A DNA stretch of 64,000 nt, taken from the NCBI RefSeq assembly GCF_002854065.1, contig NZ_CP024147.1, one strand, 5' to 3'. This document shows positions 11,875-21,636 of the stretch, in pieces. Numbering within the stretch: the stretch's first letter is position 1; every line of letters begins with the position of its first letter. The notes below the pieces were generated by a model. That model was not told where the DNA came from and searched no databases. It worked only from the letters and a program-made list of their open reading frames with translations. Position numbers and translations under genes: made by a program. This stretch comes from Escherichia coli (GTDB lineage Bacteria; Pseudomonadota; Gammaproteobacteria; Enterobacterales; Enterobacteriaceae).

Positions 11875-12221
11875 GGTCAGTCTCCATTACGGCGATGGCC
11901 GGCGCAAAATTGAAAAATTGCCCCATTTTTTTTCTGTTTCCTCAGCGACAACGACTGTCGTTTTTTAAGTAAGTATCTATCCGGTACGAAGCCCGGCCTC
12001 TTTAATTTGATGGTTGTTTTGATGTAAAAAAAATAACCGACGCGGCAAGCACGTCGGTTAATCTCAATTTTTTACATTCGACATATTTTGCCCCAAACGG
12101 TAGCAAAAAGACAAGCCGCTGAGAGCATAATCAGCACGCCTTCTCGTCTAAACGACTGATAATTCAGCAACTCCCGAATCATAAATCTCATCAATAGCAC
12201 TATTTGCTAAAACAGCGGCGA

Positions 12222-13043
12222 TTATTCCATCGGCATACGTAACGGGTCAGGATACTGATACTCAAAGCCGAGCTCGCGGCAAATGAGATTACCGTCGATG
12301 ATTTTGCCTTTTCCATTACCGCTGTCGCTAAAGCTCGGAACCGCTAACCCCAGCTCACGCGCCATTTGCGGATAGAAAATACCGCGAGCGGGATGCAACG
12401 GCGCACAAATGTTATAAATGTGTCCACCCTTCGGCGCCTGTAATAAAAGCGTAATAGCAGAGACAACATCTTCCAGATGGACGAGATTCACGCCGTGCTG
12501 ACCATCCGGCGCGGATTTACCTGCGAAGAAACGTCCCGGATGCCGATCCGGCCCCACCAGCCCCGCCAGACGCAGAATATCCACCGACGTCCCCGGCAAT
12601 TGATGAAGCCAGTCTTCCAGCTCTTTTAATACTCTGCCGCTAGCGGTAACCGGTTCACGCGGCGTGCTCTCTTTTACCAGCCCTTCTTCTTTACCGTAGA
12701 CCGAAGTGGAGCTGGTAAAGATAATGCGCGGAATCTGGTACGCCAGCGCGGTGTCCACAATCTCCTGCACCGCCTGATGATAGAAATCTTCGCCCGGACC
12801 GCTGCGGCGCGCGGGGAGCGTAATGACCAGCGCGTCAACATTCATTAAAGCATCAAGGTCATCAGCCTCACAGACCAGCTGCGGATCGAGCCGCAACGGA
12901 TAGCTATCAATCCCGCACATCCGTGCGGCTTCCACGCCATCCTCTGTCGTTTTACTGCCCGTTACCTGCCAGCCGCGCGCCATCAACGACAGCGCCAGCG
13001 GCATACCCAGCCACCCTAAACCGACAATTGCCACCTTCTTCAT
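12222..13043 (-). CDS. yeeZ: NAD-dependent epimerase/dehydratase family protein YeeZ
   Basis: Start chosen at MKKVAIVGLGWLG (AGGAGA RBS), matching the 274-aa E. coli YeeZ; the longer ORF 12222-13109 is rejected. Confidence 0.85.
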   Translation of the reverse strand: MKKVAIVGLGWLGMPLALSLMARGWQVTGSKTTEDGVEAARMCGIDSYPLRLDPQLVCEADDLDALMNVDALVITLPARRSGPGEDFYHQAVQEIVDTALAYQIPRIIFTSSTSVYGKEEGLVKESTPREPVTASGRVLKELEDWLHQLPGTSVDILRLAGLVGPDRHPGRFFAGKSAPDGQHGVNLVHLEDVVSAITLLLQAPKGGHIYNICAPLHPARGIFYPQMARELGLAVPSFSDSGNGKGKIIDGNLICRELGFEYQYPDPLRMPME

Positions 13044-13149
13044 TGCGCTATCTCCTGGTTCATCCTGCACTCCTCTCATAAGGCTACGCCACAGCGAGAA
13101 AACTGACAATTTATAGTGGTAACATGAATTGATTTAATGAATGAAAAAA

Positions 13150-13195
13150 GCGCTTGCGCTCAACGACAAAAGTGGTTTAGGTTAAAAGACATCAA
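13150..13195 (+). promoter_or_regulatory. his operon promoter region (approximate)
   Basis: Position relative to hisL and recalled similarity to the E. coli his promoter; -35/-10 hexamers not confidently placed. Confidence 0.35.
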
Positions 13196-13221
13196 GTGAA
13201 TAGTCATTCAACGAGAAATTT

Positions 13222-13272
13222 ATGAGCCGCGTTCAATTTAAACACCACCATCATCACCATCATCCTGACTAG
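13222..13272 (+). CDS. hisL: his operon leader peptide ([16 protein letters not shown])
   Basis: 16-codon ORF with seven consecutive His codons. Confidence 0.9.
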
Positions 13273-13333
13273 TCTTTCAGGCGATGTGTGCTGGGAGACA
13301 TTCAGATCTTCCAGTGGTGCATGAACGCAAGAG

Positions 13334-13370
13334 AGCCCCCGGAAGATCATCTTCCGGGGGCTTTTTTTTG
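13334..13370 (+). terminator. his attenuator terminator
   Basis: AGCCCCCGGAAGATCATCTTCCGGGGGCT hairpin followed by TTTTTTTT, between hisL and hisG. Confidence 0.9.
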
Positions 13371-18325: not shown

Positions 18326-19062
18326 TGATCATTCCGGCTTTAGATTTGATTAACGGCACCGTGGTACGCCTGCATCAGGGTGACTACGGACAGCAGCGCG
18401 ACTACGGCACCGATCCGCTTCCCCGTTTACAGGACTACGCGGCTCAGGGTGCCGAAGTGCTGCACCTGGTAGATTTAACCGGCGCGAAAGACCCGGCACA
18501 ACGCCAGATTCCGCTACTGAAAACCCTGGTCGCCGGCGTGAACGTGCCGGTACAGGTTGGCGGCGGGGTGCGCACCGAAGATGACGTCGCGGCACTGCTG
18601 GACGCGGGTGTGGCGCGCGTGGTGGTCGGCTCAACGGCGGTGAAATCGCCGGAAGTGGTGAAAGGCTGGTTCCAGCGCTTTGGCGCTGAGCACCTAGTGC
18701 TGGCGCTGGACGTGCGCTTCGACGATAGCGGCGCCAAACAGGTGGCGGTGAGCGGCTGGCAGGAGAACTCTGGCGTCACGCTGGAAGAGCTGGTTGAGAC
18801 CTATCTGCCCGTGGGGCTTCAGCACGTGCTGTGCACCGATATTTCCCGCGACGGCACGCTGGCTGGCTCCAACGTTTCGCTATATGAAGAGGTCTGCGCC
18901 CGCTATCCGCAGGTGGCGTTCCAGTCCTCCGGCGGCATTGGCGATCTTAACGATATCGCCGCCCTACGCGGCACCGGCGTGCGCGGCGTAATTGTCGGCC
19001 GCGCGCTGCTGGAAGGTAAATTCAACGTAACGGAGGCCATCCAATGCTGGCAAAACGGATAA
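18325..19062 (+). CDS. hisA: ProFAR isomerase
   Basis: 245 aa [16 protein letters not shown]... Confidence 0.95.
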
Positions 19063-19820
19063 TTCCTTGTCTTGATGTGCGTGATGGTCAGGTTGTTAAG
19101 GGCGTGCAGTTCCGCAATCACGAGATCATCGGCGATATCGTCCCGCTGGCCAAACGCTACGCTGACGAAGGCGCGGATGAACTGGTGTTCTACGATATCA
19201 CCGCCTCCAGCGATGGCCGGGTGGTCGATAAAAGCTGGGTTTCCCGTGTTGCCGAAGTGATTGATATTCCGTTCTGCGTAGCGGGCGGCATTAAGTCCAT
19301 TGATGATGCGGCGCGCATTCTCTCCTTCGGCGCCGATAAAATTTCCATCAACTCCCCGGCGCTGGCCGACCCGGAGCTGATCACCCGTCTGGCGGACCGC
19401 TTCGGCGTGCAGTGCATCGTGGTGGGGATTGATACCTGGTATGATGCAGACACCGGCAAATATCACGTCAATCAATACACCGGCGATGAAAGCCGCACCC
19501 GCGTGACCCAATGGGAAACGCTGGACTGGGTGCAGGAAGTGCAGAAACGTGGCGCGGGCGAGATCGTCCTCAATATGATGAACCAGGACGGCGTGCGTAA
19601 CGGCTACGACCTGGAGCAGTTGAAAAAAGTGCGCGATGTTTGCCGCGTACCGCTGATCGCCTCTGGCGGTGCGGGGACCATGGAACACTTCCTCGAAGCG
19701 TTCCGTGATGCCGATGTTGACGGCGCGCTGGCAGCCTCGGTATTCCACAAACAGATTATTAATATTGGTGAACTAAAAGCGTACCTGGCAACACAGGGCG
19801 TGGAGATTCGGGTATGTTAA
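19044..19820 (+). CDS. hisF: Imidazole glycerol phosphate synthase, cyclase subunit
   Basis: 258 aa [20 protein letters not shown]... Confidence 0.95.
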
Positions 19821-20413
19821 CTGAACAACTGGACTGGCAAAAAACCGACGGACTGATGCCCGCCATTATCCAACACGCGGTATCCGGTGAAGTGCTGATG
19901 CTGGGCTATATGAACGAGGAAGCGCTGGCCAAAACGCAGGAAACGGGCAAAGTGACCTTTTTCTCGCGCACCAAACAGCGCCTGTGGACCAAGGGTGAAA
20001 CCTCCGGCCACTTCCTCAATGTGGTAAGCATCGCGCCCGACTGCGACAATGACACTCTGCTGGTGCTGGTTAACCCGATTGGCCCGACCTGCCATAAAGG
20101 CACCTCAAGCTGCTTCGGCGACACCAGCCACCAGTGGCTGTTCCTGTATCAGCTTGAGCAGCTGCTGGCCGAGCGTAAAAACGCTGACCCGGCAAGTTCA
20201 TACACCGCTAAGCTGTACGCCAGCGGCACCAAGCGTATCGCGCAGAAAGTGGGTGAAGAAGGCGTGGAAACCGCGCTGGCCGCCACGGTGCACGATAAGT
20301 TTGAGCTGAAGAATGAGGCGTCGGATTTGATGTATCACCTGCTGGTGCTATTGCAGGATCAGGAGCTGGATTTGACGGCGGTGATTGAGAATTTGCGGGA
20401 ACGGCATAAGTAA
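19814..20413 (+). CDS. hisI: Bifunctional phosphoribosyl-AMP cyclohydrolase / phosphoribosyl-ATP pyrophosphatase
   Basis: 199 aa; last gene of the operon. Confidence 0.95.
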
Positions 20414-20425
20414 CGGATAAATTTG

Positions 20426-20455
20426 AGCCCGGCGATAACACCGGGCTTTATTATT
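20426..20455 (+). terminator. his operon terminator (hairpin shared with convergent ugd)
   Basis: AGCCCGG-CGATAACA-CCGGGCT followed by TTTATTATT. Confidence 0.6.
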
Positions 20456-20469
20456 GCTGCACGAACCTG

Positions 20470-21636
20470 TCAATCATTACCAAACAGATCGCGGGTATAC
20501 ACCTTCTCTTTCACATCAGCCAATTCTTCCGCCATTCGGTTAGAAATGATGACATCCGCTTCTTGCTTAAATGCATCCAAATCGCGTACAACGCGGGAAT
20601 TAAAGAATTCATCTTCTTTCATCGCAGGTTCATACACAATCACTGGAATGCCTTTCGCTTTGATTCGTATCATAATCCCTTGAATCGAAGATGCGCGGAA
20701 ATTGTCGGATCCTGACTTCATGACGAGGCGATATACCCCAACCACTTTCGGCTTGCGGGCCAGGATGGAATCGGCAATAAAATCCTTGCGGGTACGGTTA
20801 GCGTCAACAATCGCACCGACGATGTTATTTGGCACAGACGCATAATTTGCCAGCAGTTGTTTAGTATCTTTCGGGAGGCAATATCCACCATAACCAAAAG
20901 ATGGATTGTTATAGTGATTACCGATGCGCGGGTCCAGGCACACGCCTTCAATAATCTGGCGGGAGTTCAGGCCCAGGCTTTCCGCATAGCTATCCAGCTC
21001 GTTGAAATAAGCCACGCGCATCGCGAGGTAGGTGTTCGCGAATAGCTTGATAGCTTCGGCTTCGGTCGAGTCGGTGAACAGCGTCGGGATATCCTTCTTC
21101 ACTGCCCCTTCCTGCAGCAGCGCGGCAAAACGCTCGGCACGCTCAGAACGTTCGCCGATAACGATACGCGACGGATGCAGGTTGTCGTACAGCGCACGGC
21201 CTTCGCGCAGGAATTCCGGCGAGAAGAAAATATTGTCGATACCCAGTTTTTCTTTAATCGAATTGGTAAAGCCTACCGGAATGGTAGATTTGATAACCAT
21301 CACCGCGTTGGGGTTGATTTCAACGACGTCACGGATAACAGACTCAACGCTGGACGTATTGAAATAGTTCGTTTTGGGGTCGTAATCGGTCGGAGTGGCG
21401 ATGATCACATAGTCTGCATCGCGATAAGCATCGCGCTTATCAGTGGTCGCACGGAAATTCAGCGGTTTGGTCGCCAGATACTCTTCGATCTCTTTGTCGA
21501 CGATCGGCGACTGTTTCTGATTCAGCATGTCGACCTTGGCCTGAACGATATCCAGGGCCACCACTTCGTGGTGCTGGGCGATCAGAATGCCGTTCGACAG
21601 GCCGACGTAACCTGTTCCTGAAATAGTTATCTTCAT
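20470..21636 (-). CDS. ugd: UDP-glucose 6-dehydrogenase
   Basis: 388 aa [16 protein letters not shown]...[10 protein letters not shown]. Confidence 0.95.

Follow-up and report, generated by a model that had tools for sequence, protein, structure and literature searches.

The 64,000-nucleotide stretch of Escherichia coli DNA considered here, which we call the window (assembly GCF_002854065.1, contig NZ_CP024147.1), carries the his operon and its neighbors plaP, yeeZ, ugd and gnd in an arrangement that differs from that of E. coli K-12 at three junctions. In the MG1655 record, used throughout as the K-12 reference, the order is plaP-yoeI-yeeY-yeeZ-yoeB-yefM-hisL...hisI-wzzB-ugd-gnd. The features at the three junctions in the window are listed below with their strands; identities to K-12 are at the nucleotide level, and L097 is a Kluyvera-type contig that is described further on.

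10516..11874 (-): plaP, putrescine/H+ symporter (from the annotation of an identical genome), Kluyvera allele, 82.7% identical to K-12
11875..12221 (no strand): plaP-yeeZ spacer, 347 bp, a native Kluyvera intergenic region without yeeY; 346 of 347 bases equal L097
12025..12101 (-): STnc240-family element (Rfam RF02074) with an intrinsic-terminator hairpin at 12060-12034
12222..13043 (-): yeeZ-like short-chain dehydrogenase/reductase or epimerase gene, Kluyvera allele, 72.7% identical to K-12 yeeZ
13044..13403 (no strand): yeeZ-hisG intergenic region without yefM-yoeB; 360 of 360 bases equal L097
13222..13272 (+): hisL, 178 bp from yeeZ
13248-13369: His leader attenuator (Rfam His_leader, 123 bits)
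13404..20413 (+): hisGDCBHAF-IE operon, Kluyvera alleles, 59.0% GC, 81.8% identical to K-12
20414..20469 (no strand): hisIE-ugd spacer, 56 bp, with neither wzzB nor uge; hairpin at 20425-20448
20470..21636 (-): ugd, in the foreign block, 72.7% identical to K-12
21840..23246 (-): gnd, in the foreign block, 86.1% identical to K-12

The original prediction, which compared the sequence with the K-12 gene order, was that yeeY, yefM-yoeB and wzzB are missing from these sites. The order it used agrees with the MG1655 record and the three absences are real: the 347-bp spacer stands where MG1655 has yeeY and yoeI, the 178-bp yeeZ-hisL gap stands where it has yoeB-yefM, and only 56 bp separate hisIE from the convergent ugd. 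The terminator-like hairpins reported in the plaP-yeeZ spacer were also borne out, as an 11-bp stem followed by a T-run at 12060-12034 on the minus strand, inside the STnc240 match. The implication that E. coli had lost these genes was wrong. The whole region derives from Kluyvera, to which it is 94-98% identical, as against 67-86% for K-12.

Searches of 5,426 complete E. coli genomes (megablast, with window positions 10500-21700 as the query) identified four, CUWW06, EC24, MEI4BO-21 and 100416, that match at 99.9-100%; the remaining 5,420 of the 5,424 E. coli records with a match lie between 80 and 90% identity. The four genomes originate from Thailand, Spain, Gambia and Switzerland and were sequenced independently. 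In addition to the genes listed above, galF is 80% and wcaM about 70% identical to K-12. The values of 67-86% within the block contrast with 98.8-100% in both flanks: in CUWW06 the left flank, from tmaR to dacD, is 98.8% identical to K-12, and on the right the genes from mdtB to baeR are about 99% and trhP (yegQ) 100% identical. The distant ent/fep locus of CUWW06 has the gene content typical of E. coli. Searches with the K-12 YeeY, YoeB, YefM and WzzB proteins (tblastn, E<=10) found no remnants of these genes in the window or in 164 kb of CUWW06; the sole match was a stretch that carries the annotation of the LysR-family regulator nac.

The closest relatives of this DNA belong to the genus Kluyvera. 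The amino acid identity of YeeZ is 97% to K. georgiana ATCC 51603, 93% to both K. cryocrescens and Kluyvera genomosp. 1, 92% to a Kluyvera-like gut isolate, and at most 88% to other genera. Positions 10274-20413 form one colinear 10.1-kb alignment with K. georgiana at 94.0% identity that includes both upstream spacers, and the GC content of the his operon is close to that of K. georgiana (58.8%) and above that of K-12 (55.4%). A lookup of the exact HisIE protein led to contigs L088, L092 and L093, which are 98.6-98.8% identical to the window and carry different O loci; ugd and gnd show the same 98.6-98.8% identity to L088 and L093. Contig L097, which has the same PlaP protein as L093, is 98.1% identical to the block over 14.3 kb. 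Past the E. coli junction (dacD, yeeA, tmaR) L097 is 94% identical to K. georgiana and 74-76% identical to E. coli, indicating that it is a Kluyvera-type chromosome and not the same recombinant. Every named sequence among the best 120 matches to Wzc is from Kluyvera (92-97%), and contig L100 is colinear with CUWW06 from cpsB to alkA, over 22 kb, at 93.7%, where K-12 is 67-78% identical. Identity drops stepwise within Kluyvera (98%, 94%, 87%, 85%), and because all other E. coli are 67-86% identical, the block is nested in Kluyvera diversity and not the reverse.

To place the three junctions we compiled a synteny table of 80 Enterobacteriaceae species loci, using one genome per GTDB species scanned with the YeeZ protein. 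The gene yeeY is present in 59 loci and absent from 21, including those of all four Kluyvera species, where the yeeZ-plaP spacer measures 348-351 bp compared with 347-350 bp here. In K-12 the STnc240 element directly follows yeeY, and in the window and in L097 it directly follows yeeZ; in all three sequences it stands between plaP and the upstream gene. This placement reduces the yeeY difference to a clean indel between yeeZ and STnc240. The RF02074 match scores 68 bits in K-12 and 60 bits in both the window and L097, above the gathering score of 55.

The yefM-yoeB pair is absent from this locus in all 80 species. Of 75 loci, 71 have a yeeZ-hisG spacer of 349-383 bp; E. albertii and an Escherichia sp. 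have about 620 bp, and K-12 has 1063 bp. Together with the absence of the pair from every locus, these lengths identify yefM-yoeB as an insertion specific to Escherichia coli. At the third junction, of the 66 loci whose sequence extends far enough, 46 have wzzB adjoining hisI, and in three Citrobacter-type loci ugd adjoins hisI, as in the window. Kluyvera is variable at this position: K. georgiana, K. cryocrescens and Kluyvera genomosp. 1 have a gene for a uge-like UDP-sugar epimerase after hisI, locus L010 has wzzB, and a broken wzz is found in K. cryocrescens NBRC 102467. In the donor-like contigs L088, L093 and L097 the order is exactly gnd-ugd-56 bp-hisI, and L097 has neither yeeY nor the toxin-antitoxin pair. 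Since the same arrangement is found in Kluyvera loci and contigs, each of the three junctions is native to the donor. Within E. coli, matches to K-12 yeeY occur in 5,417 of the complete genomes, to wzzB in 4,718 and to the yefM-yoeB pair in only 4,217, so that absence of yeeY is rare in the species and absence of wzzB much less so. The hairpin at 20425-20448 could terminate the converging hisIE and ugd transcripts, in which case it would act in both directions.

The block extends well beyond these junctions. Its left border falls within a gene, as follows.

6778..8202 (+): sbcB, chimeric; 5' third E. coli-type and the rest Kluyvera-type in a four-way alignment of the window, EC24, K-12 and L097
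7138..7160 (no strand): left crossover, a 23-nucleotide stretch, GATCCTTACGCCTGGAGCTGGCA, identical in E. coli and Kluyvera
7161..64000 (no strand), continuing for ~11 kb past the window end to mdtA: Kluyvera-derived block, ~67 kb in all

In the four-way alignment, all informative sites before the crossover are E. coli-type and nearly all after it are Kluyvera-type. The left junction is the same in the window and in EC24, which has no prophage at sbcB, and in the aligned sequences of EC24, CUWW06 and the window it sits within an intact sbcB reading frame. One blastn alignment seemed to extend Kluyvera identity to the start of sbcB, which proved to be an extension artefact. The right border is a switch in identity inside mdtA, at CUWW06 position ~2,967,600 (300-bp resolution). 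We found no integrase, att site or insertion sequence (IS) at the crossovers; EC24 and MEI4BO-21 are without a mobile element at sbcB, and there is none among the annotations at the mdtA border. The block is an allelic replacement with mapped borders and without a mobile-element signature at either of them.

From left to right the block comprises the greater part of sbcB, tsuBA, plaP, yeeZ, the his operon, ugd, gnd, the O-antigen cluster, galF, the colanic-acid cluster, yegH, asmA, dcd, udk, alkA and yegD, and it ends within mdtA. The K-12 genes yegI, yegJ, pphC, yegL and sibA/ibsA (K-12 2,149,039-2,153,640) were removed along with the replaced segment, so synteny differences of the same origin exceed the three that had been noted. 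A single Ibs-type toxin gene is left beside mdtA (CUWW06 2,966,392-2,966,434, outside the window).

The block also holds the O-antigen locus.

23418..39621 (-): O52-family O-antigen cluster of the ATP-binding cassette (ABC) transporter type, between gnd and galF

It includes wzm, wzt, a gene for a 719-amino-acid protein combining GT2 and FkbM methyltransferase domains, 6-deoxy-heptose genes, glf, fcf1 and rfbBA. RefSeq names the wzm and wzt products subunits of an "O52 family O-antigen export ABC transporter", and they carry the Pfam domains ABC_tran and ABC2_membrane. In the 719-residue protein the GT2 domain is N-terminal and the FkbM-family methyltransferase domain (TIGR01444, 93 bits, cut-off 37.7) is C-terminal. 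Sixteen genes are annotated between gnd and galF, and neither a wzx flippase nor a wzy polymerase gene is among them, as judged from the annotation and with no dedicated profile search. The content matches that of the published O52 cluster as it is summarised in PMC7685785 (Feng et al. 2004): wzm, wzt, the methyltransferase, dmhAB/hddAC/gmhAB, glf and fcf1. The same summary lists O52 as an ABC-transporter serogroup and gives the methyltransferase as the proposed chain terminator. Only four of the 5,426 complete genomes carry the cluster, and these are the four that carry the block.

Outside E. coli the closest Wzt proteins are those of contigs L110 and L111 (95%), followed by K. cryocrescens-labelled sequences (93%) and, at 79% or less, other genera. 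At the nucleotide level L110 and L111 are 95-98% identical to the window from wcaK to gnd, and the O52-like loci L106 and L107, which are labelled K. cryocrescens, are 89% identical. The nearest Wzt proteins and loci outside E. coli are thus Kluyvera-type, indicating that an O52-type locus is at home in Kluyvera. All four of these O52-like loci are missing ~1.5 kb (window 31232-32761), which in the E. coli cluster contains the dmhA/dmhB part.

Taken together, these comparisons make it very probable that ~67 kb of an O52-type E. coli chromosome was replaced, through homologous recombination, by the orthologous segment of a Kluyvera. The foreign identity of the block, both of its borders, the genus of the donor and the native character of the three junctions follow directly from the alignments. 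K. georgiana ATCC 51603 matches the donor at about 94%, and L093 and L097 match it at about 98%. The donor brought with it the order yeeZ-STnc240-plaP without yeeY, yeeZ-hisL without yefM-yoeB, and ugd adjoining hisI. The three "missing" genes sat in the E. coli segment that was replaced and never belonged to the donor arrangement. A Kluyvera replacement fully explains the synteny finding, which is in itself ordinary: the comparison across species finds this arrangement to be native to the donor genus, the very case in which, by the terms of the original prediction, there would be no loss.

A different donor or direction of transfer seems improbable. The best labelled match, K. georgiana, reaches only 94%, and the matches at 98% are unlabelled contigs, which would be consistent with a donor from an unsampled related genus or with passage of DNA from this E. 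coli lineage into Kluyvera. Against this stand the stepwise fall in identity within Kluyvera from 98% to 85%, with YeeZ of the next genera at 88% or less, the colinearity of L097 with K. georgiana past the E. coli junction, and the nesting of the block in Kluyvera diversity. We consider it very unlikely that yeeY, yefM-yoeB and wzzB were removed by three separate deletions from an ordinary E. coli, with loss of wzzB tolerated because the O antigen is exported by Wzm/Wzt. The genes are indeed absent here and present in K-12, and a wzm/wzt cluster is at hand, yet the profile of identities refutes such a reading: flanking genes that should exceed 95% identity to E. coli reach only 72-86% against K-12 but 94-98% against Kluyvera. 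Moreover, the first two spacers match Kluyvera intergenic regions almost base for base, there are no deletion scars, nor gene remnants in the window or in 164 kb of CUWW06, and yeeY is nearly universal in E. coli. An assembly chimera, or a contaminated or mislabelled record joining E. coli and Kluyvera contigs, would account for the abrupt change in identity at the block borders but is scarcely credible, given that the left junction lies inside an intact sbcB frame in EC24, CUWW06 and the window, that four independent complete genomes from four countries carry the block at 99.9-100%, that a fifth, SY3626, is 99-100% identical across the junction region, and that 597 blocks of a public collection are indexed as containing the exact HisIE protein.

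In this replacement the selected cargo was probably the O52-type Wzm/Wzt O-antigen locus, and the neighboring genes would have hitch-hiked with it. Chain length may be set by the terminator methyltransferase of the cluster itself, in which case the loss of wzzB would have cost nothing. Either conjugation or generalised transduction by a large-headed phage could have moved a fragment of ~67 kb. The shared left junction suggests a single transfer event. We lean, by a little, toward the broader proposition that the whole E. coli O52 serogroup stems from one such ~67-kb Kluyvera replacement, made across about 20-30% divergence with a left crossover of 23 bases, at a site that stayed hot afterwards (see SY3626 below).

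Several facts weigh against these conclusions. The shared left junction is established in only some of the genomes, which bears on the claim of a single event, and the right crossover was mapped to 300 bp against K-12 only, without a Kluyvera mdtA sequence. Coverage for wzzB, yeeY and yefM-yoeB in the matching genomes consists of the 164-kb neighborhood in CUWW06 and its fepE locus. Contigs L093 and L097 were assigned to their host by sequence and not by label, and L110 and L111, despite their 95-98% identity, have no assigned host. An exact donor copy of the O52 locus was not found, the closest being L110, L111, L106 and L107 without the ~1.5 kb, and no contig was found that joins the exact E. 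coli O52 cluster to a clearly Kluyvera backbone.

The original prediction also held that absence of wzzB fits an O antigen made by the Wzm/Wzt pathway. This is plausible, and for E. coli reasonable, with an O52 cluster of the Wzm/Wzt type, but in Kluyvera it is not specific: K. cryocrescens with a Wzx-type O locus has the order gnd-ugd-uge-hisI, likewise with no wzz between ugd and hisI. A strict coupling between the absence of wzzB and Wzm/Wzt export is weakened accordingly. The suggestion that wzzB could be elsewhere holds to the extent that a paralogue, wzz(fepE), stands intact where E. coli normally has it (CUWW06 1,464,218-1,465,351).

Replacement at the O-antigen hot spot is a known type of event. 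The O regions of E. coli O8, O9 and O9a have been attributed to Klebsiella (Sugiyama et al. 1998; Kido 1995; Amor & Whitfield 1997, as cited in PMC7685785). As far as they are described there, those cases resemble ours in that a wzm/wzt locus with the gene order of another genus was gained by recombination in the his-gnd region. They differ in that the donor here is Kluyvera, the O locus lies between galF and gnd instead of between gnd and hisI, and the segment covers ~67 kb, taking in the entire his operon, the colanic-acid cluster and a further ~11 kb past that cluster. Nelson and Selander (1994, PNAS 91:10227, as cited in PMC5429811) described transfer of gnd between genera of enteric bacteria, and its recombination there. 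According to the citing account that case likewise involves housekeeping alleles of another genus near the O locus, explained by hitch-hiking; it concerns gnd alone, whereas here both borders, the donor genus and the consequences for synteny are mapped. Hitch-hiking with an O-antigen switch, as proposed here, is the same explanation that is accepted for foreign gnd alleles and for the Klebsiella-like O8/O9 regions. The donors named in the gnd study are said to be genera other than Kluyvera.

Holt et al. (2020, PMC7305143) counted 218 between-genus cases of recent sharing of cps-region locus types in Enterobacteriales. Their survey resembles the present case as an instance of cross-genus exchange of surface-polysaccharide loci. 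It is a survey of locus types, however, in which Kluyvera is merely among the sampled genera, and it mentions neither O52 nor the block described here. The account of O52 summarised in PMC7685785 covers the cluster only. In the literature searched we found no mention of O52 together with Kluyvera and no report of a Kluyvera donor.

These observations have several implications. An apparent loss of synteny relative to K-12 can signal wholesale replacement by DNA of another genus, which annotation and pangenome pipelines would score as gene losses. Kluyvera, otherwise known as the source of blaCTX-M, is identified here as the genus that donated an E. coli O serogroup, O52, on a chromosomal segment that also bore the his operon and the colanic-acid cluster. 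For serotyping and gnd-based typing, the replacement explains the non-E. coli gnd, ugd and his alleles of O52 strains, and the mapped junctions offer material for the study of recombination across about 20-30% divergence. If O52 has a single origin, it is by descent a Kluyvera O antigen with which asmA, dcd, udk, alkA and yegD were carried along too, and the serogroup would show, as a natural experiment, how much foreign core genome the species can tolerate.

Some further features of the region are of a more local kind. Within E. coli SY3626_hybrid (L105, NZ_CP059283.1; 5900-21300), the sequence from sbcB to hisL is 99-100% identical to the window. From hisG on a third sequence appears, 72-86% identical, with a uge-like epimerase gene, a ugd that has a frameshift, an IS1 copy and a different O locus. 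To judge from the sequence, part of the Kluyvera block seems to have been overwritten a second time here.

The left end of the window, positions 1-6777, is the end of a lambdoid prophage with bet, exo and gam homologues, which adjoins sbcB and takes the place of its first ~11 codons in this strain. The prophage at sbcB is present in the window and in CUWW06, where the integrase lies at L002 6195-7373; 100416 has a remnant, and EC24 and MEI4BO-21 have none. In its interior the prophage of the window is closer to SY3626 than to CUWW06. It is later than the Kluyvera import, because EC24 and MEI4BO-21 are without it and EC24 has the same crossover as the window. A left border made by the prophage, through lateral or specialised transduction with the crossover inside it, was considered and rejected, as EC24 and MEI4BO-21 have the sbcB crossover without the prophage. 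Two smaller features lie to the right of sbcB.

9506..10273 (no strand): IS1 interrupting the 5' part of tsuA (yeeE), flanked by a 9-bp target duplication, CGAATCCCA
11864-11926 (-): yoeI-like small open reading frame in the plaP-yeeZ spacer region, annotated as a coding sequence in one strain only

The IS1 in tsuA is absent from CUWW06, EC24, 100416 and MEI4BO-21, so that tsuA is broken in this strain only. Other IS1 copies are present at 3933-4700 and at 1-286, the latter cut by the window edge. STnc240 is a Salmonella small RNA family, and from its sequence the match appears to serve also as the terminator hairpin of the upstream gene.

In the O-antigen cluster, L110 and L111 keep a 104-amino-acid remnant open reading frame of the dmhA/dmhB part, and the polysaccharide of the O52-like Kluyvera-type loci may contain heptose in place of 6-deoxy-heptose. 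A Wzt sequence labelled Shigella dysenteriae at NCBI (P0124) rounds to 100% identity with the O52 Wzt yet is a distinct sequence, which suggests that the O52-type locus, or the entire block, also occurs in a record filed under Shigella.

Toward the right border, a dgcE-like gene within the block is split into two pseudogene pieces in CUWW06 (2,961,944-2,964,073, outside the window); the Kluyvera-type contigs L098 and L100 have it intact, at 756 amino acids. Just past the right junction, in E. coli sequence, mdtD (CUWW06 2,974,241-2,975,656) has an internal stop. About 8 kb past the junction, a patch in baeS (CUWW06 2,975,700-2,976,300) is 85-89% identical to K-12 amid sequence at ~99%, and may be a separate small recombination tract.

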